64,000 nucleotides of DNA. Source: Podarcis liolepis (lineage: Eukaryota). The translations under genes and the position numbers were made by a program. The DNA lies in the NCBI GenBank assembly GCA_965112155.1, contig OZ218100.1. One strand, 5' to 3'. The notes under the pieces are model-generated. The model was not told the DNA's origin. It did no database searches and saw only the letters and a list, made by a program, of their open reading frames with translations. Below are positions 2,091-64,000 of the stretch, in pieces; the stretch's first letter is position 1; every line of letters begins with the position of its first letter.

Positions 2091-2326
2091 AGAATGGACA
2101 CCCTGTAGGTGTTTATTTACATGGTTGCTCTTTTCATCTGTAGCTGCTAGTTGTGAGTAGCTTTGTCCGTGATAACTAGATCTTTCATTCATTTCATTAT
2201 ACTGTACATTCTTATTTATTTATGCTCCGCTTAGGATTGTGAAACACTGCTGTCTCTTGGATTGCATGAACATTTGACCTTACTTTCTATAATAAAAAAG
2301 CTCCTTCCTCTCTGTATATATGATGC

Positions 2327-2480
2327 ACCTCTGTAGCACACCGGATAAGTGTGTCTGGCTGTTAACCAGAAGGTTAGTGGTTTGAGCCCACCCAGGGACA
2401 GCAATGAGCAGGATTCCTGCACTGCAGAGGGTTGGACTAGATGATCATTGAGGTTCCTTCCAACTCTATGATTCTCTGAT
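2327..2480 (+). mobile_element. SINE with tRNA-Asn(GTT) head (2327-2400) and CR1 3'UTR tail (2411-2480)
   Basis: Head aligns to vertebrate tRNA-Asn (ggctGTTaacc..aaggtt.gtggtt.gagcccacccagggac). Tail gattcctgcactgcagagggttggactagatgatc...ccttccaactctatgattct matches the CR1 3' end at 63862-63940. Confidence 0.85.
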
Positions 2481-2529
2481 GCTTAGATGGCCACTTCATA
2501 GGAAGCTGCCTTATACTGGCCTCATTCAC

Positions 2530-2780: not shown

Positions 2781-4615
2781 ATCCTTTTCATGCCTGCATG
2801 TAAATTGACCACATTATTCAAGCATTATTTACATAGGATTCAGGTTGCTTGAACCCTACATCTCCACATGGATGGGCAGGCATAGAGGGAAGAGGAACTA
2901 CCATTCCTTATGATAGTTATCTGGATAGGCTGTTGTCCATTTCAGCCCAGATGTTAAGGCAGAGTTGTGGCTACCAAGTCTCATGCTTCTTGCTCCTCTT
3001 TCCCCCATAATATCTAGTGACATAAAATGTGTAATGTGACATGATAGAATTAAACATGTCTAGGCACAGTTCATGTGGTTGATTTCTCTGCAGGCAAAAA
3101 AAGAGAAAAGGATTGTGTACCCATGTACACACAGCATCTGCCCAGTCCCCAAAGTGGCTTTTCTTTATTAATAAAGAGGCTGTCAGGATTTCAATAAACA
3201 CACTTGCACATAACATTTAGCTAGGCCCTGAGACATCAAGCAAAGCCCAGGAGGTCTTCCCAAACATGCTTAACTAGGAGTAAGTCCCGCTGAACTCGGT
3301 GAACTTATTTCTGCATACTTATGTGTACATTCACACTGTACTTTGCAAGCTCATTTATGCCCAATTCAGTTTGTAGTTGTGGGCAATACTTTACCAGTGG
3401 CATTTATTGAACACTTCTGCGCTAGCATTTTATGATGCCACAGATAAAAGCTGGAAAATTGCTGAAGATAAGCACAACAGTAAAGAATAAGTTTCCAGCT
3501 TTGTCTGAGAAAAAAGTTGGCAGGTTGCTTACCTTTGATCTTAGGGTTTAATGAGTTCTAAGAGAAAGTGATGCACTCTGGGAAGAAGCTGGCCAGGGAT
3601 ATCTTGGGGCTGCTTTCATTATAGGGTGCTCTCTTGAAGGTCATCTTATGGTTCATTACAAAAGCTCGGGATTCTATATTTGCATTAAAGGATGGCTGAT
3701 CATACAAGAGAGAATACAAAGCCTTTTGATTAACACTGGTGATCAGATTTTTTTAAATTATTATTATTATAAAAAGATACCTTCTGGCTTACTCTCATAT
3801 CTCAGGTGGCTGACGTCGATGCATTTAGGAGAGCATTAATCGCCTAATTGCTATTAATATTCCTGTTTAAAGTAATCATACTATCATTTATATCAAATTA
3901 GAGCCATTCATTGCTGTCTGCCTGGAGATTAGTGGAAAATCTGCTGTTTGTTTGCAGAAATTCAATAGTTCACCTAGTCCAACTAGACTTAAAATCAAAG
4001 GACATTGCCCAGAAATCAAGGGAATGGAAACAAATTATTCCCAGAGCAGGAACATGTTAGTGTTTTCTGTGACATATTATCCTGTGCATAAGCTCTTAGA
4101 ACAATCTGTTTGAAACAGAAGTAAGTTTTATAGGTGCACAAATAAATTCCAGTCGCCCGGAGCCTGTCTCAGATTGGTGTGTGTGGTAGCATTGCACATC
4201 ATGTACTGGAAAAAAGAAGAGTGCATAGACAATGGAGAAGCAGGCAGAGCTCCAGGCTAACACTGTGGCGGCTTCATGTCTCTCTTGCATGGAACATGCC
4301 GATGTCAAAGCAAAATCAACTCAGAGCCCTGTGTGGACACACTAAATCACAGCACTTGCTCATGCTGTACATCTTTACTTCTATTTCCTCACCAGCCAAT
4401 GGTTAGTAGAATCTCAAATCTTTAGCATCTATGTGTTGAGTGCAAAGACCTGAAGGGGACTTCTGTGCACTGAGCATAAATGGAAGCCCGCATGGCAATG
4501 GAAACCGGAAGAAGGCTAATGTGTATTTTCAAATTCTGTATCTCAGTATCATTTTTTATTTCAATTCCACATCTTTTTCTTCATTCTCTACATCTCCTTA
4601 CCAACTAAGAATTTT

Positions 4616-7880: not shown

Positions 7881-8402
7881 ATAGTATCATAGAATTGTAG
7901 GGGACGCGGGTGGCGCTGTGAGTTAAACTACAGAGCCTAGGAGTTGCCGATCAGAAGGTCGGTGGTTCGAATCCCCATGACGGGGTGAGCTCCCGTTGCT
8001 CGGTCCCTGCTCCTGCCAACCTAGCAGTTCGAAAGCACGTCAAAGTGCAAGTAGATAAATAGGTAGCGCTCCAGCGGGAAGGTAAACGGCGTTTCCGTGT
8101 GCTGCTCTGGTTCGCCAGAAGCGGCTGAGTCATGCTGGCCACATGACCCGGAAGCTGTACGCCGGCTCCCTCGGCCAATAAAGCGAGATGAGCGCCGCAA
8201 CCCCAGAGTCGGTCACGACAGGACCTAATGGTCAGGGGTACCTTTACCATTTTATCATAGAATTGTAGAGTTGGAAGGCACCCCCCAAGAGTAATCTAGT
8301 CCAACCCTCTGCAATGCAGGAATCTTTTGTCCAGTGGGAGGCTGAATACCACAAACAACCCTGAGATTAAGAGTCTCGTTGCTCTGCTGACTGAGCTATC
8401 CC
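7881..8402 (-). mobile_element. tRNA-Lys(CTT)-headed SINE with CR1 tail, split by a Sauria SINE
   Basis: Reverse complement gggatagctcagtcagcagagc..gagactCTTaatctcagggttg... followed by gattcctgcattgcagagggttggactagat...ccttccaactctacaattctatgat. Confidence 0.85.
7901..8252 (+). mobile_element. Sauria SINE (Squam1/POM type), full length
   Basis: gggacgcgggtggcgctgtg...ggttcgaatcccc...cctttacc tail. Perfect 16-bp TSD tatcatagaattgtag (7885-7900 / 8253-8268). Confidence 0.95.
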
Positions 8403-8754
8403 ACCTTCACACAGCTTATATTATTTTTATTTATTTATTTAAAAGTTTTAAAAGATGTTTGTAGGGTTTCAGCGGGAGCACCTGATGATAGGAAAACGTA
8501 AAAATGAATGAATGACTATGTGCATCTGCTGGCACCAGTACGCATCCATCCCTCTCAGTTGCTGCCAGTGTTAATGAACGGAGCAAAAGGCAGCCTCTCA
8601 TTAGAAGGTAGAGCAGATCTCAAAAGGCCCTCCGCTCTTACAGTCCTATAAGAATAAAGATTCGTCCCTGTGGGGGAAATCTCACTGAGGTTTCTCTGAG
8701 TTTTGTTTTCCTTCCAGAGTGCTTCATCGATTTCATGCTCTTATGAAATCTTCA

Positions 8755-8786: not shown

Positions 8787-9058
8787 AACCTCATTATCTG
8801 TAAATGTCAGAATTATATTCATGTCAAAATGACATATCAGTGGTCCTTTTTTTAAAAAGAAAAATATTGTTAAAGAATAGGCGCTTTTTATCTTGGGAAG
8901 CTTGGGAAGAATTATAGACTTATTTGTGTACTTCTGTGATGAATATGTAGTTAGTACTACATTCCTACAACTGCTGTGGCTTCCTCCAGCAACTCCTGAG
9001 AATTGGAGCTTAGCAAATAACTTATAAACCGCCTTTTACATCGGTCTCAAGCTCATTT

Positions 9059-9383
9059 GCCCCAGCCACTCTGTGCAGCTTCCAACAAAATATCACATAA
9101 CAGAGTGAAACATCAGGCATTAAAAACTTCCCGATACAGGGCTGTCTACAGAAATTTGCATAATTGTTTATCTGCTTGACATCTGATAGGCAGGCATTCT
9201 ACAGGGCGGGTGCCACTACCAGGAAGGCCCTCTGCCTGGTTCTCTGTAACCTCACTTCTTGCAGTGAGGGAGCTGCCAGAAGGCCATCGGAGCTGGACCT
9301 CAGCGTCCTGGCTGAACGATTGAGATGGAGGCGCTCCTCCAGGTCTACAAGGCCGAGGCCATTTAGGGCTTTAAAGGACAACA
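9059..9383 (-). mobile_element. L2-clade LINE 3' fragment
   Basis: Minus-strand ORF FKALNGLGLVDLEERLHLNRSARTLRSS...RQRAFLVVAPAL is homologous to the 15279 copy. Confidence 0.9.
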
Positions 9384-10585: not shown

Positions 10586-10797
10586 TAGTTTGCCTCAAGC
10601 CAGGAATGTCCCTTATGTTCATGTTGTTGCTGACACTGAGTTGGTTCACACGTAAAACTTAAGCCTGGGATTCCCAGTGCACCAGAAGTTTTCATTGCTG
10701 TCCTGCCATTGTTCTGCTTGCAACAGGATTTCAGTGCCATGTTTGGACTCATATAGCGCTGTTATCCAGCCTTCTGCAGATGAGCATTCCCTTAGAC

Positions 10798-10935
10798 CAG
10801 GGTTTCCCAAACTTTGATCTCTAGCTGATTTTGAATTACAGTTCCCATCTGTTCTCTGATTCCTGATCCTGCTAGCTAGGGATGATGCGAGTTGTAGTCC
10901 AAAAACAGTCGGAGACCCAAGTTTGGGAAACCCTG
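10798..10935. mobile_element. hAT (Charlie-like) hairpin MITE
   Basis: TIRs cagggtttcccaaactt / aagtttgggaaaccctg. 8-bp TSD ccttagac / ccttggat (6/8). Confidence 0.85.
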
Positions 10936-10989: not shown

Positions 10990-11333
10990 CTGTGGGTTAA
11001 ACCACAGAGCCTAGGACTTGCTGATCAGAAGGTCGGCGGTTCAAATCCCCATGACGGGGTGAGCTCCCGTTGCTCCGTCCCTGCTCCTGCCAACCTAGCA
11101 GTTCGAAAGCACTTCAAAGTGCAAGTAGATAAATCGGTACCGCTCCGGCGGGAAGATAAACAGTGTTTCCATGCGCTGCTCTGGTTCACCAGAAGCGGCT
11201 TAGTCATGCTGGCCACATGACCCGGAAGATGTACACTGGCTCCCTCGGCCAGTAAAGCGAGATGAGCGCCGCAACCCCAGAGTCAGTCACAACTAGACAT
11301 AATGGTCAGGGGTCCCTTTACATTTACCTTTAC
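10990..11333 (+). mobile_element. Sauria SINE, slightly 5'-truncated
   Basis: Colinear with the 7901 copy, with an (ACCTTT)-like tail. Confidence 0.95.
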
Positions 11334-15260: not shown

Positions 15261-15812
15261 TAGGGATGTGAAGGAATATGCAATGCGCTCTACGTGGGGC
15301 TACCTTTGAAGGTGACTCGGAAACTACAACTAATCCAGAATGTGGCAGCTAGACTGGTGACTGGGGGTGGCCGCCGAGACCACATAACACCAGTCTTGAA
15401 AGACCTGCATTGGCTCCCAGTATGTTTCCGAGCTCAATTCAAAGTGTTGGTGTTGACCTTTAAAGCCCTAAATGGCCCCGGCCCAGTATACCTGAAGGAG
15501 CGTCTCCACCCCCATCGTTCTGCCCGGACGCTGAGGTCCAGTGCCGAGGGCCTTCTGGCGGTTCCCTCATTACGAGAAGCAAAGCTACAGGGAACCAGGC
15601 AGAGGGCCTTCTCGGTAGTGGCGCCCGCCCTGTGGAACGCCCTCCCATCAGATGTCAAAGCGATAAATAACTACCTGACATTCAGAAGACATCTTAAAGC
15701 AGCCCTGTTCAGGAAAGTTTTTAATCTGTGATATTTTAGTGTATTTTTGGTTTCTATGGAAGCCGCCCAGAGTGGCTGGGGAAACCCAGCCAGATGGGCG
15801 GTGTACAAATAA

Positions 15813-15849
<37 letters not shown>

Positions 15850-23094: not shown

Positions 23095-23325
23095 TTCCCC
23101 CAATCTGTCCAGATGTTGTTGGACTCCCAGCTCCCATCAGCCCCAGCCAGCATGGACAATGATCAGGGAACATAGTTCAGTTGGTAGAGCATGGGACTCT
23201 TAATCTCAGGGTTGTGGGTTTGAGCCCCATGTTGGGCAAAAGAATTCTGCATTGCAGGGAGTTGGACCAGATAACCCTTGTGATTCTTTTATCTATGATG
23301 GGAGTTGTTGTTCTATGACATCTAC
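23095..23325. mobile_element. Old hAT hairpin MITE interrupted by a tRNA-Lys SINE
   Basis: tccagatgttgttggactcccagctcccatcagccccagccagcatggacaatgatca[SINE]gatgggagttgttgttc...catct. Confidence 0.65.
23166..23299 (+). mobile_element. tRNA-Lys(CTT)-headed SINE with CR1 tail
   Basis: Head at 23166-23238 aligns to tRNA-Lys-CTT (ggtagagcatgggactCTTaatctcagggttgtgggtttgagccccatgttgggc). Tail ctgcattgcagggagttggaccagat...ctatgat. Confidence 0.9.
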
Positions 23326-26496: not shown

Positions 26497-26586
26497 AGCC
26501 CGGTAGCACAGTTGGTTAGAGTGTGGTTCTGATAACGCCAAGGTTGCAGGTTTGAGCCCTGTGTGGGACATGAGCCTCTATGATTT
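26497..26586 (+). mobile_element. tRNA-Ile-derived SINE head (anticodon reads GAT) with vestigial tail
   Basis: gcccggtagcacagttggttagagtgtggttctGATaacgccaaggttgcaggtttgagccctgtgtgggaca aligns to tRNA-Ile. It is followed by ctctatgatt, resembling the end of the CR1 tail. Confidence 0.75.
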
Positions 26587-26618: not shown

Positions 26619-26782
26619 GGGACACGGGTGGCCCTGTGGGTTAAACCACAGAGCCTAGGACTTGCCGATCAGAAGGTTGGCAGTTCGAATCCCCGTGACG
26701 GGGTGAGCCAACCTAGCAGTTCGAAAGCACGTCAAAGTGCAAGTAGATAAATAGGTACCACTCCAGCGGGAAGGTAAACGGC
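26619..26782 (+). mobile_element. Sauria SINE, 3'-truncated, with a 26-bp internal deletion
   Basis: Colinear with the 7901 copy except that ggtgagc is joined directly to caacctagc. Confidence 0.9.
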
Positions 26783-29845: not shown

Positions 29846-30512
29846 ATTTTGAAATAAAACATTACGTAGGAGATCGGCTGCAGAATGCATATTTAATGCA
29901 GGAAAGTTAACCAAGGTTAGCCAGTAGAGCTGCAAAATGGGATTCCTTGGCACTCTCTCAGCCATGAGATTGCCGAATAGTAAAGCCATACTCACCCACA
30001 GTCACATGCCTCACCTTTGGCATGGTAATAAAAGTTGGGCTATCACACAGGACCACTGCAGAGGTCATTGAGAATGCCTTCAACTCTACAAGGCAGGGGT
30101 AGCCAACACGGTGCCCTCCAGATATTGCGCACTGCAACTCAAATCAACCCCACCCAGCACTGCTAATGGTCAGGAATGTTGAGAGTGAATGAAAACATTT
30201 GAAAGGCACTGTGTTGACTTCCTTTGCTGTGTAGAGAGCATCATGTGCCCTGACTGAACTCATTATGAAGTTCTATCACCTTTCAGGGGTTGGTGGGGAG
30301 TGATGATACACACATGTTGCGTTCAGTGATGAATCAAGTCTATTCTGGGTGGGGGGTGGGGGGGGAACAGAAGCAGTTGGGGATGCCTTTTCATACTAAT
30401 GACCACATGCCTCCACCCAATAAGGCATTTGTTGGGTACATAGAAGATTTGGCACAAATCTTTATTTTTAAAATTTAAATTTAAAAAACTGCAAGAATTG
30501 AATTAGCCAATA

Positions 30513-30738
30513 CAGTGGCACCTCGGGTTACATACGCTTCAGGTTACAGACTCCACTAACCCAGAAATAGTGCTTCAGGTTAAGAACTTTGCATCAGGAT
30601 AAGAACAGAAATCGTGCTCCAGCAGCATGGCGGCAGCAGGAGGCCCCATTAGCTAAAGTGGTGCTTCAGGTTAAGAACAGTTTCAGGTTAAGAACGGACC
30701 TCCAGAACAAATTAAGAACTTAACCTGAGGTACCACTG
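30513..30738. mobile_element. Tc1/mariner (Tigger-like) MITE, family A
   Basis: TA TSD. TIRs cagtggcacctcgggtta / taacctgaggtaccactg. Internal ttcaggtta repeats. Confidence 0.95.
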
Positions 30739-32227
30739 TACATGAACAAATAATTGAAAATTCCCAACAAGTAAGATTTCATAAAGGAAGAGAGAAGTTA
30801 ATGAAGATAAGATTTTATTAGGGTAACTGGAATTGATTTGCAACCTTTGGAACAGCTTGTATTAATCAGCTTGTACACTTGGAAATATTAGCATTTTGAT
30901 TGGAACAAGGACGCTTTTTCTCTTGGCAGTTTGAAATGTTCATCTTATCTGCCCAATTACTTGGAGCCTTCTTGTTAATTATTGATTGTATGGTAGTGCA
31001 TAGAGCATTATATTGTTTCCATGTGGTTGTTTACAGCGGAGGTGACCTGTACTTAAGCAGTAAAACTGCAACGTATGGGTTGGAGGGGTATTGCTCCTGT
31101 ATAGCTGTTGTTACACTACATGATAAGCCCCTAAGTGCTGGTACAGCACGAATTCCAGGCATTTGCTCTGATTTTCTTTCTTCATATCATAGACTTCATT
31201 GTGATTGATTCACACTGTACATTCAAAAAGGTTAACCTGTTTTGACATTAGTGGTGCCTAGCATGGTAGATGCTCCTTATCCTGGACCAGGGATGGGAAC
31301 CTTTGGCGCTCCAGATTTTGCTAGACTACTACATCCTATCATCCCTGACCACTTTGTTGACTGGCTGTGTCTGATGGAAGTTGCAGTCCAACAGCATCCC
31401 AGCCCAAGTCTAAAGATATTGTGCAGGACATTCTGTTTCTTTCCCTGCAACAAAAAGTGGTGAATGGGTAGCATCCAGCTTTATTATTTATTTGGTTAAT
31501 TATTCATTTAAAAGACTCAGGATACAGCTTTTCAGAACATGGTTTACAGGCACTAAAATATATTGATAATGATCAGTAAAGTACAAAAATTAGAATCCCA
31601 TTGCTATCATTGGCATAGACTGAAACAGGCTGAAATCTGCATTGAATGCATAGCCCAACCATTCTACCACCACAGCCTACCTCACAAATTTAATCAACCC
31701 AAAGATTTGTACAATCCTTTTAAAAAGTATCCCTTTAGAGCTCCTTTAAAAGGTGTTGGCAGTGGGGCTTTCCTGAATTGCCCCAGAACTGAGTTCCATA
31801 AATGCCTGCTCATTAAAATAAGCATCCACAGCGGAACATTTAAATCCCATATAGCTCCATTTCTGGGGAGTATAAATTGACCTGAAAATGACCTCAATAA
31901 TAATGCTAACAATCCATAGTTATGCCATGTTTAGTGAGTACAAATAATCACCATTTTTAAGGCTGCCAGTTTTACTGGGTTTCAGTAGAATATTACTCAA
32001 CCAATTCATCATTGGAGGCAATTTCTAACCAGTCAGGTAAGGATTGAGAGCTAAGGGCAAACTGGTTTGCATGAAGCGCTATTTTGGTTTCGGTGTGTTA
32101 CCATCATCAGCTCACAAACTCTGTGATGCGGGCCTATATTGCTATGTAAGCACGGGCAGCGTTCAGGGTTGGTTAAAGGACACAACAGGGAAGACAACAG
32201 GCCCTGGCTGAGTTTGTGCTGTAAGGT

Positions 32228-37522: not shown

Positions 37523-38374
37523 AGCTAGCCCAACAATTAAATGTTACTGTCACCTGAACCAAGGTTTTGTTGAAAATATTTTAACAGGCTTTCAGTCTTC
37601 ATAGGCCCCCTATTTGTCTTCTTGCTCATGTTTCCTATTGACAGTAGCTGATCATGGAAAGGATGCTGACTGACTTCTTTGTGCCTTTGAAGAAAGAAGA
37701 GAAAGAAACCAGCTACTGTAAAAGCTGAACGTAATGAATGCTCTGATGCACCAAATGTCCTTGGCATATTTGGCTATGTTTAGCTCACTGATTATGGGTT
37801 CTGCTTACTCTGTACAGCCACTCTGTTCTTCTTCTTCTTAATCAGCAACCCTTGTCCATGTCTGCCTCCTTATAGCTTATTAAATGACTGCCGTGCGCTC
37901 CAACTCATCCTTAATTTTCAGGACCAGTCCTTGTTTCCCGGTACCTGTTCCAATTTTGTTTCTCTCTTACCTTTCGCAGAGGTTTGGCAGATAGCTTTTT
38001 AAAATATTGTTAGAGTATTATTTTAGAGCAGCCATTCTCGAGGTTTTAGCTGCACCTGAGACTCAGCAGGGAACTCTTCCCCCACCTGGTGCCCTAGAGA
38101 TGTTTTGGACTACAACTCCCATCAGCCAGTATAGGATGGGTGCAACTTCCTGCCAAACAGGAAGTAGCTGATGCCAAGGATGTCCTTTGTGAGTTGTAAT
38201 CCAAAACATCTACATGGTTCCAGATTCGCAACAGCTGCTCTAGAGCTTAAAAATCTGAAGAGATGGAAGGTACCTTTTTGTAAACCGCTTTGTGGGTTTT
38301 TCTTGAAATCAAGCAGTGTATAAATTCTATTAAATAAATAAAATAAATATCTACCTAATAAAAGTTGCTGATTA

Positions 38375-38600
38375 GACAGAAAGCCTTCTTGGTAGTGGCG
38401 CCCTCCCTGTGGAACGCCCTCCCTTCAGATGTAAAGGAAATGAACAACTACCAGACTTTTAGAAGACATCTGAAGGCAGCCCTGTATCGGGATGTTTTTA
38501 ATGTTTAATGTTTTAATATGTTTTATATGTACTATAAGCTGCCCAGAGTGGCTGGGGAAACCCAGCTTAGATGGGAGGGGTATAAATATTATTAGTATAT
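38375..38600 (+). mobile_element. L2-clade LINE 3' fragment
   Basis: Colinear with 15600-15846 (gccttcttggtagtggcgccctccctgtggaacgccctccc...gcccagagtggctggggaaacccagc). Confidence 0.9.
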
Positions 38601-38742: not shown

Positions 38743-38879
38743 CAGGCTTCCTCAACCTTGGCCCTCCAGGTGTTTTTGAGACTACGATTCCCATAATCCC
38801 TGACCACTGGTCTTGCTAACTAGGGATTATGGGAGTTGTAGGTCAAAAACATCTGGAGGGCCGAGGTTGAAGAAGCCTG
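38743..38879. mobile_element. hAT (Charlie-like) hairpin MITE
   Basis: TIRs caggcttcctcaacct / aggttgaagaagcctg. Perfect 8-bp TSD atctaacc (38735-38742 / 38880-38887). Confidence 0.95.
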
Positions 38880-39164
38880 ATCTAACCCTTGGCTTGACTT
38901 TCGAAAAACAGGGGCTCTGTAGTACTTAGCTAATTGGGAACCACTGCTCTAGATTTTTAATTGTTGCAACTCCTCCACAGGTTATTTTTAGCTGAGCGGC
39001 CTTTGCAATATCTCTGTTCTTAAGCTGTTGGCACCGAATTTTATCTGTCATTCTTTTTCATGCACATATTATTTTGTTATAATATGTTATAATATAATAT
39101 GTTAAGCTTATTTCATCTTAAGAGATTTCTCTCTCCAGTTTTGTAGGGATCAAATATATAATTA

Positions 39165-39390
39165 CAGTGGTACCTCAGGTTAAGAACTTAATTCGTTCTG
39201 GAGGTCCGTTCTTAACCTGAAACTGTTCTTAACCTGAAGCACCACTTTAGCTAATGGGGCCTCCTGCTGCTGCTGTGCCGCCGGAGCACAATTTCTGTTC
39301 TCATCCTGAAGCAAAGTTCTTAACCTGAAGCACTATTTCTGGGTTAGTGGAGTCTGTAACCTGAAGCGTCTGTAACCCGAGGTACCACTG
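39165..39390. mobile_element. Tc1/mariner MITE, family A
   Basis: TA TSD, TIR cagtggtacctc. Opposite orientation to the 30513 copy. Confidence 0.95.
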
Positions 39391-39982
39391 TATTTCAAAA
39401 GAAGTCATTCACTTCTTATGTCTACTTTAACACTCTATGTTCATGATGATAACAATGTCAGCTTCTCGCAGTGGGAGGGGTGAAATATCCTCAGACAATA
39501 ACAATCAAATGGCAGGTGGGGGAGTTCTGCTGCTACCCCTTGTTCAGGTGTTATGCCCGAAAAGGGAATTGCAACACAACCAGGGACAATGGAGTGCCTG
39601 CACTGACTTCACCCACTGTGTCCCTGTCTGCTCCACCCTGACCTTTCTGCGTTGAGTGGGGAAGTCTGATGGGAGTTTCTGAATGCATTCAGCCAAGAAA
39701 TTGTCTTCAGCCAACGAACTCTGAGCCTTTCTGTGATAGGGTCAGAGTTGAAACTGTGTTTGCACTCATGCTTGCTCTTTAGCTGAGCCTGGAGGCACAA
39801 AATTCAATTAATTCCTCTCTGCATCTGTATCTCCTGACAACTTCTTAAACACACACACACACACTAGCTTATATTATACCGTAAAACATAGATGCCTCTT
39901 AACAGGGGCTTTGAGGTTTGAAACAGCCACCTGCTGGGACTTCACTCAGTTGGCATGACCATAGAGCTCAAGAGTTCCCTGG

Positions 39983-41892: not shown

Positions 41893-42115
41893 CCCCCACC
41901 CCACACTTTTTTGGAGAGATTAGGGGGTTGTTTTAAATGCAAGGAACATTAGCTGGGGAATGAAACCAAATGTTTGGTGCCAATGAAGGCTTTGTTCCAA
42001 TGCCAATAGCACCTTCAGAGGACGGGCTTTCCACAGGACACCTGCTAATTGTCCGGCTAATTGTCAACCCCATCTCCACAGCTGATGCTATTTGCATTTT
42101 TAAAAACCACCTGTA

Positions 42116-42245
42116 TATAATAATAATAATGATGAATAATGATGATGATGATGTTTTATTTATATCCCGTTCATCTGGCTGGGTTTACCCAGCCACTCTG
42201 GGCAGCTTACAGCATATATAAAAACATAATAGAACATCAAACAAT
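42116..42245 (-). mobile_element. L2-clade LINE 3' end
   Basis: (TAA/TGA)n tail, then tttatatcccgttcatctggctgggtttacccagccactctgggcagctt. Confidence 0.8.
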
Positions 42246-44004
42246 TTTTAAAAAACAGAATATCTTAATGATGAAGACACTTTTATCGTCTCCTCTAGTT
42301 TAGCCTTCAGTTGATGCCTACAACAGAGCAGCACTGAAGAAAGGGCAATTTCATGCAAAATGTAGGATGTGTCTCTTGGAACAAACTAGACAGAGCAGAA
42401 GGAGGTCAGTTAAAAGTAACTGTGTGGAGGAGAAAGCAAACCAGATTGGGGCATTTTGCCAGTCTAAATGCCACCGCAAGCTGCCAATTTGCCCATGAAG
42501 GAAAACATACAAGCAGCCCCATAATATTCCCTCCCCAGTAATGTTAAATAGGAGAAGGAGAAATCATGATACAGCGTCATTGCATTGAGATTCTCCCACT
42601 CCATTCGCCTCCACTTTCAGGAGCAATTGATGCACTGACACTGCATCTCTATTTTCATTGTGTGGATGTTGCCAGGAGAGAAGGGAGGAAGAGATGTGAG
42701 GCTATTGCCCTTGGTGGTATCTACACCTTCAAACCTATTGTCTAGTTCTGTCCTTCCTGTCCTTTGTCCTTTAATATTGCCACATTATAGCCCTTGGAGC
42801 AGTTTTCTAAGCAATGCACCAATAGCTTATATTTAACTATGTGTCTGTGAACAAACGTGAGTGCTGTACTCATCTCACAGTCTTTGTAGCCTTTCCTGGG
42901 GAAATGCACTGTATTTAATACCTCTGTGATGCTTGCCTGATCTATTTCCAACTAGTCCTTGAAGTAAAAAAACAACTCAGCTTTTGTACTCAGTAGAGAA
43001 AACAACAGATCAGTTTTCCTTCTCACTGAGAATGCTGGTGCCTGTGCCTTTTACCAGTAAGGCCAGGTCCCAGGGGCAGCCTTCTCTCCCAGGTGATTTT
43101 CCTTTCTTTTCGCCCTGCTAGGAAAATGTGCCTCTTTCCTTTTTGCCTCCAGTGCTCTCACAGTCCAGCACTCTGACATACATTTACACTTCAGAGACAA
43201 AACTGCAGTAGGATAAACAAATCACCCTTTCTTGTTCCTTTGAACCACAAATGTTCCTCTGTGACCAAGAATAGCCCCAGCGCAAGCCCTCTCCAAATGC
43301 AGAAATAAAAACTGGCGGCATTGTCAAAACTTTGCTGCAGTCAGTGCCCTGTGGAATTAATCAATGGCAGAGGCAAGCTTCTTGGTGTCTTCCTCACCAT
43401 ACGCTTCGGATGTAAAATATTTTTAATGTGATAGCTGGGTCAGTTCTCTCCCCCTTTTTTCACCTCCCTTAAAGGCAGCCATTTTGCTGGAAGTCCTCTA
43501 GAAGTTGCTCCCTGGAAGCCCCTCGTAACAATGTCATTTTTCATGCGCAGACTTCTGTCATCTCATCTGACAGCGGCCTGTGGGTTAGCTCTCTGTTTTC
43601 ATTCAAGATTTCAAGTCCCGCTCCCCAAGGGAAATGATATGTTTTCTGTGAAGGGCAGCTACACTGTGTCTACACTGTGATTGCATCAGCACACATTACT
43701 CATGTGCTCCGCGCACACAGGCACACGCACATATGCATGGAACGGCACGGGAGCATCTGTTGCCAGCCTATCTGCATCGGCTCATGTGCCTCTGAATGAA
43801 GGAGCCACGGCAACATCACAAGCTTGGTTTGTTAGGTCAACAGGCTGAAAGCTCAGATCCACGCTGGGAGTGCTGGCAGGTGCTCCAGCACTTATCATAA
43901 TACGTTTCTAATGAGGCTGGTGAAAAGTGCCGTTTGTTTGTTATTCAGTTCCATGATGGCACTGAGCGGACACATTTTAATAAGAGCAGGTATTGCATTT
44001 CTTG

Positions 44005-44510
44005 CCAGCAGAGGAGCTGAGATTTGAAGAGCAAAAGGCCCTGCTTCAAATTCATATCCTCTATGATGGAGGCGGGGAGCCTTCAGTCCTCTAGAGCTGT
44101 GTTTCCCAAGCGTGGGTCTCCAGCTGTTTTTGGACTACAACGCCCATCATCCCTAGCTAGCAGGACCAGTGCTCAGGGGTGATGGGAGTTGTAGTCCAAA
44201 AACAGCTGGAGACCCAAGCTTGGGAAACATGGCTCTAGATGTTGTTGGACTCCAATTCCCATCAGCCCCAGTCAGTGTGGCCAGTTATCAGTGGTGGTGG
44301 TGGATGTAGTCCAGCAACATTTGCGGGAGGGAGCATAGGCTCCCCACTCTGTGAACTCATTAAGCAGCCACAGGGCAACTCACTATTCACGCAGCCTCAT
44401 CCGCCGTGAAAGACAGCATGCTATAGTGAGCGCATGACTCACTGGGTTGTTGTGAGGACTGAAAGGCAAGGGGAGAATATTGCCCTGCGTTCCTTAGGCT
44501 AAAAATGGAC
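44005..44510 (+). mobile_element. Old MIR/Squam3-like SINE containing an old hAT MITE (about 44067-44351), which itself contains a younger MITE
   Basis: Head-like ctgcttcaaattc...ctctatga|MITE|tgaactca...gggcaactcacta...cagcctca...gggttgttgtgaggact. Boundaries approximate. Confidence 0.45.
44097..44232. mobile_element. hAT (Charlie-like) hairpin MITE nested in an older MITE
   Basis: Near-perfect palindrome tgtttcccaagcgtgggtctccagctgtttttggactacaa...ttgtagtccaaaaacagctggagacccaagcttgggaaaca. TSD ctctagag / ctctagat. Confidence 0.9.
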
Positions 44511-47841: not shown

Positions 47842-47973
47842 NNNNNNNNNNNNNNNNNNNNNNNNNNNNNNNNNNNNNNNNNNNNNNNNNNNNNNNNNNN
47901 NNNNNNNNNNNNNNNNNNNNNNNNNNNNNNNNNNNNNNNNNNNNNNNNNNNNNNNNNNNNNNNNNNNNNNNNN
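47842..47973. other. Assembly gap (132 N)
   Basis: Run of N. Confidence 1.
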
Positions 47974-48256
47974 GGGCTGCCCCAGCCACTCTTGGCAGCT
48001 TCCAAAAGAATATAAAAAGCCCATGATACATCAGACATTAAAAGCTTCCCAATACAGGGCTGCCCTCAGTTGTCTTTGGAAGGTCGTATAATTGGTTATC
48101 TATTTGACATCTGACAGGTGTTCCACAGGGTGGGCGCCACTACTGAGAAGGCCCTCTGCCCATTTCCCTGTAACCTCACTTCTTACAGTGAAGGAACCAC
48201 CAGAAGGCTCTTGGAGCTGGACCTCAGTGTCCAGGCTGAACGATGGGGGTGGAGAT
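47974..48256 (-). mobile_element. L2-clade LINE 3' fragment running into the gap
   Basis: Homologous to 9059-9383 and 15500-15790 (ttccacagggtgggcgccactactgagaaggccctctgcc...ctgaacgatgggggtggaga). Confidence 0.9.
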
Positions 48257-50265
48257 ATACAGCGCTGAAGCCATTTAGGAGCCCTAGTGGGAGGAGAGTC
48301 TTCTCCCCAACCCCCAAATCAATGATTGTGCAGGCAGGCTGGGTCCCTTGAAATGAAGAAGAATCTCTCCCAGAAAGTGGAGCCAGCTGCTGAGATACAG
48401 CTGCAGCTCTTGTTTAAGGCTCAGTCTGAAGCTGACTGGTGCTGAAACAACATTTGAGTGCTCTTCTTATGGAAGTGCTAGTCTGTACGTTGCTGTCTAG
48501 GGTACTAGTGAAGCCTCCCCTTCTTTTCATACGGCTGAGTTTTTTGCTTGAAACAGAACAAGAGCAAGCAGATGTTTCCAATGGTGTGCCTTCTGAGGGA
48601 ATGGAAATACACCATGGAATATTTATTTTTATTGTGCATGAAGTAACTGCACAAGCTTTGCTTTTTTGCGACTTCCCAAAACTGTCTTGTGTACAAAGGA
48701 AACATAATGATTGGAATTGGCAGAAGGGCAATTTGTTTGTCTCTTTTGCTAACCGAAATGTTAATGTGATAATTGACTGCAGTAGTTATGGCTTACACTA
48801 ATAAGGAGACAAAAGCAATGAGCTTCTGAGCTTTATGGAGAGATGTGGCATTTTCCTCTTCTTTTTTAATAGCCTGTAAATATTCCTCAGAGAATTTGCC
48901 TTGTGTCGTTCACAAGAATTTCAAGCATCGCTTTCCCCCCAGAACTGCCCTTTCATTTTTGCTTCCCATTTAGGGAAATAAGAAAATACACCAGAATATT
49001 TAAGAGATATCCCTTCCACACTAGAGGATATTATTTAGCCATGGGAATTGGGGGCAGATTGGGTACTTGCAGGGGCAGTGCATCCCGTTTTGCCTCCTGA
49101 GGCGAAATGAGAAGTTGCTGTCCTACTGCCACAGCGTCCCTCACATGGGTCATCATCGGTGCCCGCAAAGCAGCAATGAAAATGGCGAGCCCCAGCAATA
49201 TCTCACAATATTTTGGTGAGATCTTGTGCAGCATCATCGGCTGCCACTGCAACAGCAGAGGCGGCAGGTACCACCTCTTGCAGTTCCACCACCTGAGGTA
49301 ACTACCTCAGCTCGCCTCATGTGGGCTAGGCCCGGGTACTTGTATTAAAAATGGTAGCACATGAGGTCGCTGTTATCAATGGGACGTTTGGCTGCCAGCA
49401 ACGACACCAATAGTTATCAGGTCAGAAAGTTCAAAGGCTATTCAGAATTGTTGTGGAGGTTTTATTGCAGCTGTAAACTTAAGTTTTCCAGTGGTTGTAC
49501 AAGTTCAAGGGGGAAGGCGTCAGAAAGTTGTTCATGGAAAGAAAATCAGCCTTGATGGAACAAACTCATCGTAATCTATATTTAGAAATATAGTTCTTGA
49601 GTCAACACAAATGACGACTCCCAGTAATTGCAGTGTTCCTCTCAGGGAAAAGGAAGCTCTTTCTGGAAGGCAAGACTTCTCTCCTGGGTCAGCCCTTATA
49701 TATATATAGAAGAGTACATTGAGGAACAAATTATCTAATCATCGCTTCTACACAGCTGCTTATTTTTGCTTGAAGCTACACCTGCAGGAGGAGCTGTTTT
49801 CAATAAAGATGCTCTGAAAAGTAACTGATTTTCATTTGTTTCGAAATCAGCTGGTTTAAAACAGCCCAGTCAGTTGCTGGGGCAGGAGTACGTAGTTGAC
49901 CATTGACGTTATTTTAATATGTTATGCCAGGAAGTGTGCCCTAGCTTCAGCTCATTTTGGTCAAGGTATTTCCTCAGGCTTAGTCAGGCAAGTTCAAGGA
50001 TTGCAGAGCTCTGCTCCCAAGGCCCAGGCGCTTCCCTAACCTGTTGGCTGTGTGGGAACCTGAGGGTACTACACAATTCCCAGGAAGTTTCAAATCAGCC
50101 TTTGGGAGCTCCTATACAGCCCTCAGTGAGCTGTGATTTAGTTTCTGGGACTTGGATTTTTAAGGGGGGGGGCATTTCAAAGGGCTCACTGGAAAAGTAG
50201 AAGGTGCTTTTCCCACAATAATTAAAGTAAAAACAAAACTGAAAAACTGTTCCTGTGAATCAGTA

Positions 50266-50866
50266 CAGTGGTACCTCGGGTTAAGAACTTAATTCGTTCT
50301 GGAGGTCTGTTCTTAACCTGAAACTGTTTTAACCTGAAGACCACTTTACCTAATGGGGCCTCCTGCTGCTGCCGCGCCGCCGGAGCACGATTTCTGTTCT
50401 CATCCTGAAGCAAAGTTCTTAACCCGAGATACTATTTCTGGGTTAGCGGAGTCTGTTAACCTGAAGCGTATGTAACCTGAAACATATGTAACCCGAGGAA
50501 AGGTAAAGGGACCCCTGACCATTAGGTCCAGTCGTGGCCGACTCTGGGGTTGCAGCGCTCATCTCGCTTTATTGGCCAAGGGAGCCAGTGTACAGCTTCT
50601 GGGTCATGTGGCCAGCATGACTAAGCCGCTTCTGCCAAACCAGAGCAGCACACAGAAACGCCGTTTACCTTCCCGCCCGAGCGGTATCTATTTATCTACT
50701 TGCACTTTGACGTGCTTTCGAACTGCTAGGTTGGCAGGAGCAGGGACCGAGCAACAGGAGCTCACCCAGCCGTGGGGATTCGAACCGCCGACCTTCCGAT
50801 TGGCAAGCCCTAGGCTCTGTGGTTTAACCCACAGCGCCACCCGCGTCCCAACCCGAGGTACCACTG
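50266..50866. mobile_element. Tc1/mariner MITE, family A, interrupted in its right TIR by a Sauria SINE
   Basis: TA-flanked cagtggtacctcgggtta ... aacccgaggtaccactg. Confidence 0.95.
50499..50849 (-). mobile_element. Sauria SINE, full length
   Basis: Reverse complement is colinear with the 7901 copy. 9-bp TSD aacccgagg (50490-50498 / 50850-50858). Confidence 0.95.
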
Positions 50867-51995: not shown

Positions 51996-52430
51996 CACAC
52001 CATACATTTAAAGCATTGTTATATCACTTTAAGAGCCATGGCTTCCCACAACGAATCTTGGGAATTATGGTTTCTTAGGGGCCTCCTAACAATTCTTGGT
52101 GCCCTTAACTAACTGAAGTTCCCAGGATTCTTTGGGGGTCATGACTCTTAAAGACACAGTTCTTAAAGTGGTGTAACACTGCACTACACACACAGTGGTA
52201 CCTCGGGTTACATACGCTTCAGGTTACATACGCTTCAGGTTACAGACTCCGCTAACACAGAAATAGTACCTCGAGTTAAGATGAGAACAGAAATCGTGCT
52301 CCGGCGACACGGCGACAGCGGGAGGCCCCATTAGCTAAAGTGGCGCTTCAGGTTAAGAACAGTTTCAGGTTAAGAACGGACCTCCGGAACGAATTAAGTA
52401 CTTAACCTGAGGTACCACTGTATGGTATAT
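51996..52430. mobile_element. Palindromic Harbinger-like MITE interrupted by a family A MITE
   Basis: cacaccatacatttaaagc...catggcttccc...gaatcttgggaa / ttcccaggattctttggggg.catga...[MITE]tatggt. Related to 24228-24422. Confidence 0.55.
52193..52420. mobile_element. Tc1/mariner MITE, family A
   Basis: TIR cagtggtacctcgggtta, flanks CA/TA. Has an internal duplication of tacatacgcttcaggt and a short deletion. Confidence 0.95.
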
Positions 52431-53411
52431 ATGTGAGAGTTTGCCAGTTGTTTTGAGAACCGCAAAAAGCATGCTATATTGCTGATAACCAGAGCTCAAC
52501 TAAGTGGCTTCCTGCCTAAGTTGAACCCCTTGTCTTCTTTATTTAAGAAATTTATATCCCACCCTTTAACCAAAAAGGATCTCGAATATTATTATTATTA
52601 TTTAAAAAAACAGTTCCTTACTGCTGTACTTGTGAACTGCTGCCCTGTGCACTTGTTTATTCGGTGGTCTATGCATTGATTTGGGTCAGACATGGCAAGA
52701 GTGCTGCAAGAAATTCTTTTTCGGTCAATATAGAGGAATCCTTTCCCCTCCCTTGGCCTTGACTGCCAATAAAGGCAATTAACAGCCCTTGCTTATTTGG
52801 ATATATGGTTGTGGGAGTTCTTGGTGCCGTAGCAGTCCCCACAGCAGATGAAGTAAGTCAGAGGCATGGTTATTTACTAGCTAAAAATGCTTATGCTTCT
52901 GCGATTAGGTTTTCACATCCTCTGATGGCATTTTTTAAACATAGCCAGAGGAGTGGCATTTGGGAAGCCGTAGGACAGGTTCTCAGCTGCTATGAATCAC
53001 TGTGGCTTGTCTTAACTTTGCAGTTTTGCCATTTTCCTGTGTCTTCACTAATGGTTATCTTAGCATTGCTAATCGTGGCTGTAGGCTGGGAACAAGCTAA
53101 GTTGCTCCCTGCCCACTTAAGTGTAGTTCTCCTCTCCACTGTGGTATCAAATGAACGACAGTGCCAAGCCGGGGAGGGGGGTGGGACCTTCCCTAAATCT
53201 CTGTAAACCCCATATCTCTGAAAATATTCATAATTGGTATGCCACAGGTATAGAATACAACCTTCAATGCAGAAACCTTTCATCATCATCATTGCTAGTC
53301 CCTTGTTACATAGAGATCTCCAAGCAACTTATGTCATATTTAAAAACTTAAACATAAGTATATTATAATATTGACACATTTGTACAAAAATGCAAGCAAG
53401 TAAAAAATATA

Positions 53412-53637
53412 CAGTGGTACCTCAGGTTACATACACTTCAGGTTACAGACTCTGCTAACCCAGAAATAGTGCTTCAGGTTAAGAACTTTGCTTCAGGATG
53501 TGAACAGAAATCGTGTTCCGGCGACACAGCAGCAGCAGGAGGTCCCATTAGCTAAAGTGGTGCTTCAGGTTAAGAACAGTTTCAGGTTAAGAACGGGCCT
53601 CCGGAATGAATTAAGTACTTAACCTGAGGTACCACTG
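53412..53637. mobile_element. Tc1/mariner MITE, family A
   Basis: TA TSD. TIRs cagtggtacctcaggtta / taacctgaggtaccactg. Confidence 0.95.
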
Positions 53638-54105
53638 TACAAAACTAGCACAGGCAACCCAGTAGCTGCTGCAGCAAGCTTTAGCAGCACACAAACACAG
53701 GAAAACACATCATCATCGTCATAGCCCATCAAAAACCTGGGGGAAGAGAAGACAATTATTTTACCTGGAATCCAAAAGATGGCAGCAAAGATGCCAGGCG
53801 GACCTCATTAGGGTGCTATCCCTCATGGATCTCTCCCCCGCCCGCCCCTGGGTATAGTGCATTCCATCTTCCTAATATCACATTGGATGAGGAATTTTGT
53901 ATTTGTGAATCAGGAGAAGTAGTAGATACTGTGCATTATCTATTATATCATCATTTTTACCATAAACATTAGTTATTGCTCTGAGCAGCTTTTTAGGTCT
54001 CGCCATTCCACATTCACCAACGTGCTCAACAAATTGTGGGGGAAGATTGGTGATGGTGGGCAAGCTATCTTTCAGAAAAGAGAGTCCACCATTACATGAA
54101 CATTA

Positions 54106-57801: not shown

Positions 57802-57937
57802 CAGGGTTTTCCAAACTTGGGTCTTCAGCTGTTTTGGGGCTACACATCCCATCATCCCTGACCACTGGTCCCACTATCTAGGGAAGTTGGGAGTTGTAGT
57901 CCAAAAATAGCTGGAGACCCACTTTTGGGAAACCCTT
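57802..57937. mobile_element. hAT (Charlie-like) hairpin MITE
   Basis: TIRs cagggttttccaaa / tttgggaaaccctt. Perfect 8-bp TSD aactagaa (57794-57801 / 57938-57945). Confidence 0.95.
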
Positions 57938-60159
57938 AACTAGAAAAACTTGGCTCTTCCTTATGTTCTTGCTCTGCTCAATGCTTCCACCATGTTCAAC
58001 CATATCTTCACTTGCTGGTGCCAATTGCCACCACCATTTTGGCCATTGCTGCTATTGCACCACCTTCTTTTGCTGCAGTTGTTCCACTACGTTGATTTCT
58101 TTTGTTGTTCACTTCTGCCATGAAACATTACATTACATTGGCAGTATTCGTGCTGTACTAGGTAATCTTCAGCCAGGCCTTCATTCCTGAAGAGAGATGC
58201 ACTGGGGCTCAACCAATCTGAATGCCATGCATTAGCACTGCTGGTGGTATTTTCCAGCCTTCCTTCGCATTCCAATCCATGCAGCATAACACATAGCAAG
58301 GATTCCAAGGTTGTTTTTAAACCACTTCTACCATGAAATGTTTGATCATTGCTTCTTTTCTTTGTAAATTAAACCGAGCAAAAATGTTTGCCCCACCATG
58401 ATTGAAATCTGGAAGGGCTAGGCATGTTGTTTTAATAAACTTGTTTAAGAGCCAGATCCACCATGCAGGGAACCGGTTGGCCCTTTCCCTGTTATTGAAC
58501 AACATTCAGTCCTGTGACCAACTGGGCAGTTGTTGAACATATTGACTGATGCTCTTTGGCTGCAGCACTTATCCCCTGTTGCATAATACTGAGTCTTATT
58601 ATGTTTTCACTGTTGCCTTCTGAAGGTATTTTCTGAATCAGGAAGTGAACCAATGATTTCAAGGATTGTTACCCTAGGATAGTTGACTGTATAAACCTGA
58701 AAGAGCATATGAGAACTCATTTTTCCCGTGCTGAAGGAAGGAAAATAAATTGCCTTCATGTTGTTTGCAGACCTTGGAGCTGCTGGGAAGGAAAACAGAC
58801 TATTCTCTCTTTTTCCCATGGTTCAGTGTGTGGGAACCTACAAAAAAGTAACCATTTAGTAATAACAGAAGCCGTGTAACTCCTGCGGAAATTTTTTAGC
58901 TACAGTAACTAGCAGTGCTTCTTTCTAAAATGATGCCCGTGTGTTTTCATGATAATTTGACCTTCAAGTATTGTGTACAGAAGCAATTTTTACATTAAGC
59001 TTTATGCGACGCATATGAATGACTTTGACCCCACTTTTGTATAATAAAACAGAGTGGCTTCTTGCTGGGAAGTAAGTGGCTATAGATAGAAAGGGGCTAA
59101 TTCTAAGGTAGATTATCCCCAATTTGGCTAACAATTTCTTGAGTGAGTTCATTTTCCGAGCTGCTTTTCACATAAGGCGTTTTCTCTCTATTCTGAATCA
59201 AATTATTCTTTTCTTGCAAGATATTATTTGGTTTTAAGTACTTCACATCAGAGCTATTTGATATTATCTATGCTCTATCAGTAATTACTATCTATTGTTG
59301 TTTGCATGCTGTTAGAATACAGGGATATTATAAATCCTGCATACCACCAGAGAACATTTAAGTACCATTAAAAATCAACAGGATGTTTTTATCCCCAATT
59401 GAATTCAACAGGTTGTTATTTGAGCTTATCTGTCTGCAGGTTTTGCCCATTGTTATCTTCCATTGTTGGAAAGCATATATTTCTTCCAATCTACTCTCCC
59501 ACACAGTTGTTTAAATCCACAAAAATGTAACAGACAGTCAGATTTTGTGTGACAAAATTCCTACTATGGATTCCCATCCACGTAGGATAGAATATGTACC
59601 CGGCACATCATGATTCTATACACATCTTGCGTGAGATTGTTTTAATACGTCTGAAAATGCTGAGAAGCATCCATTGTCTTCCCAGTATGTATCTGTACAC
59701 CACCAAGAATAAATAAGTCACAACAAGATGATAAGCTCATCTTGCATAATTGGCACAGCTTGTTTGTTGTTTCCTGCAAACGGAATGCTTTCCATATAAG
59801 AATCTATTGCTATGTGTGGATATTCTTCCAGAGGGGTAGCTGTGTGAGTCTGTTACGGCATAATAAATTTTGCTGGCCTTCAAAATTGCCAGAAGACTTT
59901 CATAATGTGTGAAATTGCTCTAATGCTGCCGTGCTTCAAGAAACCTTAATCAGCATCAGCTGAGTATGTAAACTAGCCTGCAGGTGGCTGAGGCTGATGG
60001 GAGCTGTAATCTAAAAAATCTGGAGGGCGCCAGCTTGGCCAAGGCTGGTGTAAGCATGGTGGGCACCAGGTTCCAAAGAATGCACGTACAAAAAATAAGA
60101 AGAAACAATGATAGATGCTCCAAATTAATACCCATAAGTACTGTCTTAAAGTCTATACT

Positions 60160-60238
60160 CATAGAATCATAGAACTGTAGAGTTGAAAGCCACGACCCCG
60201 AGATTAAGATTGTCATGCTCTACCAACAGAGCTATCCC
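60160..60238 (-). mobile_element. tRNA-Lys-headed CR1-tail SINE with a large internal deletion
   Basis: Reverse complement gggatagctctgttggtagagcatgacaatCTTaatctcggggtcgtggc joined directly to tttcaactctacagttctatgattctatg. Confidence 0.8.
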
Positions 60239-61588: not shown

Positions 61589-61743
61589 CATAGAGTAATA
61601 GAATCATAGAATTGTACAGCTGGAAGGGACCACGGCGGGCATCTAGTCCAACCCCTGCAATGCAGGAATCTTTTGACCAACGTGGGGCTCGAATCCATGA
61701 CCTTGAGATGAGGAGTCTCATGCTCTGCCAACTATGCCATCCC
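61589..61743 (-). mobile_element. tRNA-Lys-headed SINE with CR1 tail
   Basis: Reverse-complement head gggatggcatagttggcagagcatgagactc...gattcgagccccacgttgg, tail aagattcctgcattgcaggggttggactagatg...cccttccagctgtacaattctatgattct. It sits inside a TAGGG-type relic starting at 61512. Confidence 0.85.
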
Positions 61744-63861
61744 AAAGGGCTGTTGGTGTCTGTTAGGCACAATGGCTATTCATCTGCTATTATTATGCTT
61801 ACTAATTTGCACAGAGGTTCACACTTAAATACATGTTTTTAAATGTATTCTATATCAGAATACACATCCCTAAACCTGTTTTCTCTCAAAAGACATACTC
61901 CTAAAATGTGTTTTCTCTTAAGTATGATATATTTGAAACCAGGAACTGTGTTGAAAACACTTCAGAAGTGCAAAAGCCATTCGATAAATGGGGCTCTGGG
62001 GCTCACATTAGTCCAGGAATTGCAGATCAGATCAGTTCCTGTTGGAACTGACAAAGATCAAATTCCTCCAGCCTCCCTTCCTTGCCAGTACCAGAGCAAA
62101 GAAATGTCTCACCCTGTAAGAGTGTCTTTGCACTTCACAAAGCTGATGGTGTGTAGTCTGCCAGATTTCCTCTTAGATTTTGGTGTAGGTTTTTTCTCTT
62201 CTCCGTTTTTAGTGAGGAGGCTCATGAAAGAAATAGGTTTGGTTCGGTTTTAATCACCATTTGCACCCCGATCCATCCCCATTTTCACAAAAGGACATTT
62301 TTACACATGATTGTTTGTGCAAAAATGTGGATGGGAATTCTCAATTGAATGCATGTTCCAGGAGTCTGTGCATTGAATGCAGCGTAGATGGACAGCAGCC
62401 ACACTCAGGGGTGTATGCTGTGTACATTGTTCAAATGTGCACCTGATTTATGCCCTTCTATGGACCAGATCACCTTCTATGGACCAGAGTCTTCTAATTG
62501 CTTTGCCAATGCTGGATTCCTCATCTTACTGTTCTTTTTTTTTTTAAAAGAAAAAATATTGCACTGTGATTGCAGCGTAACCTTAATTAATGCCATTAAA
62601 CAAATAAACACCTACAGCAATCTTCAGGTCAAATAACAAGGGGTGAGATATAAAGTGGGGTGGGAACCAGCAAACTGTGAGCAGAAGGCAGGACTTTGCA
62701 ATGTCAAAGGAAGCCACCATTTTAGGCACAGCCGATAGGTGCACGGTCGTGCACACACGCATTGTGCCGAACCCAGAAGTGACACAAAAACATCACAAAA
62801 AGGGGTGGAATGGGGTGTTTGCAGGCTTTTTCAGTGGTGTTTCAAATATACACTATGTCACTCAAACACACGGTATCTTGCAACATAACCCCCATGTAAA
62901 TTGGGAGTTGCCTGTCCTTAGCGGTAGACGCTCTGTGTTGGGCATGGCCGAAAATGCCAGGAATGGTCAACTACTTCCTTTGGAGAATGCCAAGGGCTCA
63001 TTCATGGCTGGCTCCAGATTTAAGGCATCTCTGGGCAAAGTGCCCGCTGGTGAGCCCCCTTCTCTGCGGGAAGAAACGCAACCCACCCTAAATAAACCGT
63101 GTTGTAAAAGGGGCTTCCGTGTTCTGGCTCCATGTGGCCTGCATTAGGCACACTGGCCAGGCAGCTTCCTGCAGGGTGCGTTGATTCAAATAAAGGCCGG
63201 TTCAGTTATCGAGAAAAGGAAATCCAGAGCAGATTTAAATCACTAATTTAAATCAGCTTTCCCCTTTTGTAATTCGCAAACATTTCCTGAACAAGCATGC
63301 TTGCTTATTAGTTGCCAAGACATTTGAGGCATATTAGTTTTCAACTGAATCAAGCCTTTTTTAATATTACCTAGGAGTGCGCTCCAAAACCTCTTTTCGC
63401 ACAGCCCACACGCCTTGGCATTACAGGAATATAATTGCTTAGAGTCAAAAGGGCAGTTGTAAAATTAGTGGCGGTTTGTTTTTGCTCCTTCCATACACGT
63501 GCGAGGACACAGGAAGAAAGCCACTTATTTGAGGATTAAGGCCAGGATCCAGGAAAGTCGTAAAACATGTTCTGTAATGCTAAGAGGTAGTTAGGCTTGT
63601 CCCCCCCCCCCCTTCAAAAACAGCCCTCAAATACTACATGACAAAGTGCTTTTGAAACTGAGAGGAGTTTCATAAGCAGTTTTTTATATCTTGCTGTGGG
63701 GCAGGGGAGCACGCCAGTTAAAGGAGGGGGGCTAAAATTGCTCTGGCATAGCATAAGCCCCCCTGAATCCCCTTCCACAGCTTTTATGGATTCCAGCTCA
63801 ATGTACACATCAGCGGCTTGAAGCACCGCCGTTTCCCTGCAGCTGCATTTCAAGTTGTTTT

Positions 63862-64000
63862 AATAGAATCATTGAATTGTACGAGTTGGCAGGGACCCCA
63901 AGGGTCATCTAGTCCAAGCCCCTGCGATGTTGGAATCTAAACTAAAGCATCCATGACAGATGGCCATCTAACCTCTGCTTAAAATTCTCCAAGGAAGGAG
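63862..64000 (-). mobile_element. CR1 LINE 3' end: ORF2 C-terminus plus 3'UTR, continuing beyond the window
   Basis: Reverse complement translates PSLENFKQRLDGHLSWML* (stop at 63942-63944), then gattcc..catcgcaggggcttggactagatgacccttggggtccctgccaactc...attctat. Confidence 0.9.

Follow-up and report, generated by a model that had tools for sequence, protein, structure and literature searches.

Elements in which a tRNA-derived head is joined to the 3' tail of a CR1 LINE have been described in birds, in turtles and in a wall lizard. In passerines, two tRNA heads have been found on one CR1 tail, TguSINE1 (tRNA-Ile) and PittSINE (tRNA-Asp), and template switching has been proposed for them (Suh et al. 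2017, PMC5729268); the available sections of that paper also state the ATTCTRTG end motif. As far as those sections describe them, the passerine elements share with the ones reported here a tRNA head on a CR1 3' tail and an ATTCTRTG end; they also have a tail hairpin, which in the present elements is a prediction. On the other hand, they are bird elements with a CR1-X1 tail and two heads, whereas the present elements come from a squamate and have three (Lys, Ile-GAT and Asn). In the accessible part of PMC8044555, on ManaSINE1, PeleSINE1 and ApalSINE1 of birds, two tRNA-headed SINE families are described in one genome (manakin) and an Ile(GAT) head in trogon, and no Asn head is named there.

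In the part of PMC3747384 that was available, zebra finch and turtles figure among the hosts of tRNA+CR1 SINEs. The tortoise Pol III/SINE of the same source (tRNA-Lys + PsCR1) has a Lys head and a CR1 tail, as do the Lys copies reported here, the two being likened by description only and the former belonging to turtles. Among lepidosaurs, tuaCR1-SINE1a/b of the tuatara are tRNA-like, mobilised by CR1 and number over 10,000 elements (PMC7116210 and bioRxiv 10.1101/867069, both in part). In Podarcis sicula, a tRNA-derived SINE has been paired with a CR1-like LINE, according to the title of Fantaccione et al. (2004, Gene 339:189). The Lys-headed family of the window, that is, the whole 64,000-nt stretch of Podarcis liolepis DNA analysed here, is probably the P.s.1/SINE of that lizard and hence already known, although the two were likened by description only. 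The elements of the 2004 study are reportedly named P.s.1/SINE and Lucy-1, with a Lys head and one head type only.

The squamate families Sauria/Squam1, Squam2 and Squam3 are 190-350 nt long and have a body, in the parts seen of PMC10702118, PMC7983390 and PMC13295347, whereas the elements of the window measure about 150 nt and have none. Identity with each of the three was considered and rejected on these partial descriptions: Sauria has a Bov-B tail ending in ACCTTT, while the tail here is of CR1 type and Sauria-type copies stand separately in the window; Squam3 has 218-239 nt, a CORE fragment and an L2-derived end (PMC7983390), against about 150 nt, no body and a CR1 tail; and Squam2, compared by description, consists of head, body and LINE-derived region, about 190 nt or more (PMC10702118), against elements without a body. 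An Asn- or Ile-headed lizard CR1-SINE was not found in the literature searched, with Dfam, Repbase, SINEBase and most subscription papers outside the search, and none is named in the available parts of PMC3531059, PMC10058329, PMC11303007, PMC5381603 and PMC10670947. Judging from the accessible text of these sources, both the design and head swapping are already published (TguSINE1/PittSINE; for the design also the turtle Pol III/SINE and the tuatara elements), and the Asn and Ile families are new or under-described. Squamate SINE lists, in the portions seen, centre on Squam1-3, and at least two further CR1-tail families, Asn- and Ile-headed, appear to be missing from them.

The Asn-headed element and its relatives in the window

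At 2327-2480 lies an old copy of an element that has a tRNA-Asn head and exists in many copies (Table 1). The initial annotation, made from the sequence alone, had placed a tRNA-Asn(GTT) head here, which is confirmed by ARAGORN, calling 2327-2400 as tRNA-Asn(gtt), and by Rfam RF00005 with 39.9 bits (gathering score 29). Its statement that the CR1 tail follows the head holds, with the correction that an 11-nt linker (2401-2411) separates the two. ARAGORN calling 2327-2400 a tRNA also means that copies of this type inflate tRNA gene calls.

Table 1. Parts of the Asn-headed element, other CR1-tail copies and the CR1 end in the window
Feature	Position	Strand	Basis
5' copy of likely 6-bp target-site duplication (Asn element)	2321..2326	+	3' copy 2477-2482
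tRNA-Asn(GTT)-derived head with A and B boxes	2327..2400	+	ARAGORN, Rfam, comparison with tRNA-Asn genes
Asn-family linker, 11 nt	2401..2411	+	Read mapping
CR1 3'UTR-derived tail, predicted hairpin, ATTCTRTG-type microsatellite end	2412..2480	+	Similarity and profile searches
tRNA-Lys(CTT) head (8403-8326) and full tail	8254..8403	-	Similarity search
tRNA-Lys head and tail degraded in its 3' half	23166..23295	+	Rfam 35.4 bits, similarity search
tRNA-Ile head (26497-26570) with anticodon GAT, then 5 filler letters and some 10 nt from the tail end	26497..26585	+	Comparison with tRNA-Ile genes
tRNA-Lys copy with internal deletion, T-arm start joined to tail end	60155..60238	-	Tail profile
tRNA-Lys head and full tail	61590..61744	-	Similarity search
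CR1 LINE 3' end: last 18 ORF2 codons, stop 63944-63942, 3'UTR from 63941; runs off the window	63862..64000	-	

Compared with three full-length animal tRNA-Asn genes, the Asn head differs in 17-19 of 74 letters. The reference tRNA-Asn and tRNA-Ile genes (L001-L010) lie on stray animal-like contigs from species other than this lizard. The animal-type tRNA-Asn genes L006-L010 come from short contigs in the assemblies of five prokaryote genomes, where they are likely to be host contamination. The anticodon stem of the head contains two compensatory pairs relative to real tRNA-Asn genes, 2355/2369 and 2356/2368, with pairing kept; this count omits L006 (1-nt insertion) and L010 (partial duplication), and the shuffle control, of four rows only, gives no probability. 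The window's letter at 2355 is found in more than 85% of the mapped reads, all C>T places being accounted for among those listed, and at 2347 a C unlike real tRNA-Asn genes occurs in 58/71 and 62/69. The letters at 2355, 2356, 2368 and 2369 are likely to be those of the Asn family, the last three not being among the letter places listed. The simplest reading would be a variant tRNA-Asn gene as source of the head, as judged against reference genes of other species. The 3' copy of the candidate target-site duplication overlaps the last microsatellite unit; a 6-mer would recur in this way by chance in 0.9% of cases, a figure that is less telling given that four of its letters are common to the microsatellite.

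The tail at 2412-2480 matches 8324-8254, 61670-61603, 63937-63868 and 23242-23299 at 72-85% (E 2e-14 to 8e-6), with 77-83% identity to the CR1 end at 63862-63938, and a tail profile additionally finds 60203-60162 at E 1e-4. In the reversed window the best E of this profile was 1.1, against 1e-22 in the forward one. The tail motif has 6 matches in the window where 0.6 are expected; that at 3970-3985 is likely due to chance, and the weak tail matches at 3970, 30065 and 41624 were left out of the copy count. The origin of the tail in the CR1 3'UTR, close to the ORF2 stop, was corroborated inasmuch as the tail starts 4 nt after the stop; this CR1 runs on the minus strand, and the window includes no more than 18 of its ORF2 codons. 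We take 63862-64000 to be CR1 from its ATTCTRTG end and the look of its ORF2 C-terminus, 18 residues being too few for a family scan. The ATTCTRTG microsatellite stands at the end of the element and is also read in the loose ends behind 2475/2480. An equivalent stem is predicted in four of five tails, the Asn tail being no more stable than its shuffles (z -0.76). The tail pattern had no match in viral, metagenome or prokaryote-genome contigs, nor the Asn and Lys head patterns in viral contigs, and Pfam on 26 of the 78 long ORFs of the window gave nothing above cut-off.

Lys heads had been proposed at four loci with the same tail, and all four stand, with the 23166 tail degraded and the 60238 copy internally deleted; the head motif has 4 matches in the window against 0.02 expected, and the assignment to Lys is based on the CTT anticodon and Rfam. 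In the 60238 copy the deletion also takes the last third of the head, and its joint is likely to lie at a microhomology of 5-6 nt. A Sauria-type SINE (about 7901-8251, +) is inserted in the microsatellite of the 8403 copy, with a 16-bp duplication and the remainder at 7881-7900; as it lies inside the tail of the Lys copy, the latter is the older of the two. Next to the head, no target-site duplication was found for any of the four Lys copies. The Ile head at 26497, proposed to end in a vestige of the tail, does so, with the GAT anticodon and a remnant of about 10 nt. This head matches a real tRNA-Ile gene in 59 of 74 letters and the copy is flanked by an exact 7-bp duplication (9 bp with one mismatch) at 26487 and 26581, with a chance probability of 0.2%. 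It is a member of the Ile family with an internal deletion. Both the Asn and the Ile copies are flanked by likely target-site duplications.

Copy number and junctions in reads and contigs

Of the 24 runs listed, four were mapped on 2260-2559 at 80% likeness: two sets of raw reads, from a pair of related organisms (X24 and X22; 1,938 Mb each, about 1.3-1.6x for a genome of 1.2-1.5 Gb), and two of contigs (X1 and X15). The mapped reads are selected for likeness to the window's Asn copy, and its letters are thereby favoured. In the two raw-read sets, depth is 0-1 in the flanks, up to about 980 and 800 in the Asn head, 600 (X24) and 504 (X22) at linker place 2403, and 19,500 and 13,500 in the tail. 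The reads crossing the Asn junction correspond to at least about 310-460 copies for a genome of 1.2-1.5 Gb; this is a minimum, since reads had to resemble a single diverged copy to be counted. A segmental duplication or satellite with common flanks was considered for these copies, and the flank depth argues against it.

At 2403, 2404 and 2407 the linker of the window copy has letters other than those of the family majority, which occur in 91/83/83% and 92/84/87% of the reads. This agreement of 83-92% implies that the Asn junction was inherited and not made anew each time. Besides, contigs of two other organisms span the border between flank and head (X1 record 1, X15 record 9) and another (X1 record 8) spans head, tail and 3' flank, so the insertion is old and shared; no empty site, that is, a joint skipping the whole element, was found in the mapping at 2260-2559. 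The Asn and Ile families could serve as presence/absence markers for lizard phylogeny.

The reads that break off at the start of the tail fall into several classes. Before 2412 there are 6,486 loose ends (X24), in the majority a CR1 ORF2 end like that of the window, mixed with Lys heads; here the contig consensus differs from that of CR1 in 6 (X1) and 3 (X15) head-side places, and by eye all of these match the Lys head. Before 2413 there are 2,048 and 1,449 reads, together with 177 and 153 contigs, whose consensus reads as the 3' end of a tRNA-Ile head followed by a short linker; the agreement is 0.49-0.56, and the size of this Ile class is uncertain because it is mixed. Compared by eye, the window Ile copy matches this consensus in 19 of 23 letters and has all three of its departures from real tRNA-Ile genes, two of which are of CpG type and could be parallel changes. 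The possibility that the Asn- and Ile-headed copies were singletons is thus dismissed by the mapping: both are multi-copy with family-specific junctions, and they accompany a Lys family that is abundant. Before 2414 there are 3,952 reads; these are likely to represent another CR1 type, also abundant, that differs in its ORF2 end and has five distinctive tail letters. Since these letters (2421, 2423, 2439, 2444, 2456) are absent from the SINE tails of the window, the latter are grouped with the CR1 type at 63862-64000. Several families had been expected to co-exist on one tail, and three were found (Asn, Ile and Lys), their tails all belonging to a single CR1 type. Beyond the loose-end classes and letter places listed there are 800 and 9 more, respectively, so additional heads may be present.

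Origin of the three head types

There are three head types, each multi-copy, each with its own junction, and all with a tail from the same point of the CR1 3'UTR. That these elements are SINE families, whichever their origin, is close to certain. Their transcription would depend on the internal Pol III promoter of the tRNA head. The CR1 reverse transcriptase, for which recognition of the tail is predicted, would then insert copies of the SINE RNA elsewhere in the genome, with CR1 ORF2p acting in trans and priming where the ATTCTRTG repeats end the tail. The reading that we favour, and consider reasonably probable, is that of three SINE families driven by Pol III, mobilised by the CR1 type present here and related by head replacement, most likely through a template switch from the SINE RNA to another tRNA transcript.

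The junctions between head and tail provide a hint of such common descent. Those of Ile and Asn both end in GGGAC-R-GCTG, while real tRNA-Ile genes end in GGGCCA in 5/5 cases, and the TGGGCA of the Asn linker recurs where the 23166 Lys head ends. These overlaps comprise 4-6 letters and were noticed post hoc. AGCTG is also found at the CR1 stop codon, from which Ile and Asn could have taken it separately. The two CR1 types also diverge from each other at 2412-2414, so the common tail start may only mark the start of the conserved 3'UTR core.

The most serious alternative, possible although we hold it with some doubt, consists of three independent births: a 5'-truncated CR1 landed behind three tRNA genes, or the reverse transcriptase jumped onto them, and Pol III transcription ran through the fusions, which were then amplified; the linkers would be tRNA trailer or CR1. 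Both routes are named in the available part of PMC5381603. Such an origin agrees with the fact that the three linkers differ and with the two compensatory pairs of the Asn head, as in a real variant tRNA gene; moreover, no junction has the CCA of mature tRNA, and A58 is retained in the Ile consensus, both in line with a source that was genomic or a precursor. Nevertheless, the three tails would have to start independently within 1-2 nt of the same point and to come from one CR1 type though the second abundant type exists (3,952 reads before 2414), and the short overlaps that link Ile with Asn and Asn with Lys argue for relatedness. The three-head case lets head swapping, a principle already known, be set against independent birth.

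Head replacement could also have been serial. According to this more detailed and rather improbable version, a single lizard CR1-tail SINE exchanged its head at least twice in series (Lys, Asn, Ile), and at every exchange a small number of letters from the former head stayed behind at the junction. The head of the Asn elements would represent a tRNA-Asn variant not described so far, marked by its two compensatory pairs in the anticodon stem, and the GAT of the Ile head would go back to the reverse transcription of a precursor tRNA edited from A34 to inosine. If this were true, repeated RNA template switching would have left in the three families a record, not yet catalogued, of how SINEs are born.

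Very improbable, in turn, are recurrent chimeras without any SINE phase, in which the CR1 reverse transcriptase repeatedly switches to abundant tRNAs, as in U6-L1 chimeras. The involvement of several tRNA types and the internally shortened copies at 60238 and 26497, suggestive of a jumping enzyme, would be compatible with them, but 500-600 reads agree to 83-92% on one 11-nt linker; this and the family letters of the Asn head at 2355 and 2347, unlike real tRNA-Asn genes, point to few source copies, and for Asn this explanation is largely refuted. A chance encounter of a tRNA pseudogene with a CR1 stub, conceivable given the great number of CR1 3' ends (tail depth 13,500-19,500), is hardly credible, being refuted by the hundreds of reads that cross one Asn junction and opposed by likely target-site duplications that enclose head and tail together.

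Other repeats and features of the window

Another tRNA-headed element, at 37481-37310 (-), combines a head resembling tRNA-Ala(TGC) (Rfam 28.8 bits) with a body and a tail of another kind, and we presume from its appearance that it resembles Squam2. A remnant of its tail is present at about 2498-2525 (-), adjoining the Asn element. Sauria-type SINEs are represented by five copies (7901-8251, 10990-11325, 26619-26782, 50499-50850 and 56625-56959), the full ones being 85-92% alike, and one of them begins about 30 nt behind the Ile copy. Ending in ACCTTT, the Sauria-type SINEs of the window mark its host as a squamate, in keeping with a table of PMC13295347.

A palindromic MITE-like family occupies 10785-10935, 38748-38869, 44091-44228 and 57796-57936, three of the four copies giving sub-threshold Rfam matches to miRNA precursors. 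Two unclassified repeats are also interspersed: a young one of about 230 bp with 85-94% identity (30509-30742, 39150-39394, 50263-50498, 52201-52436 and 53409-53641) and an older family with 72-85% identity (92-256, 9049-9383, 15451-15849, 38374-38598, 42115-42254 and 47974-48255). An assembly gap of 132 N lies at 47842-47973.
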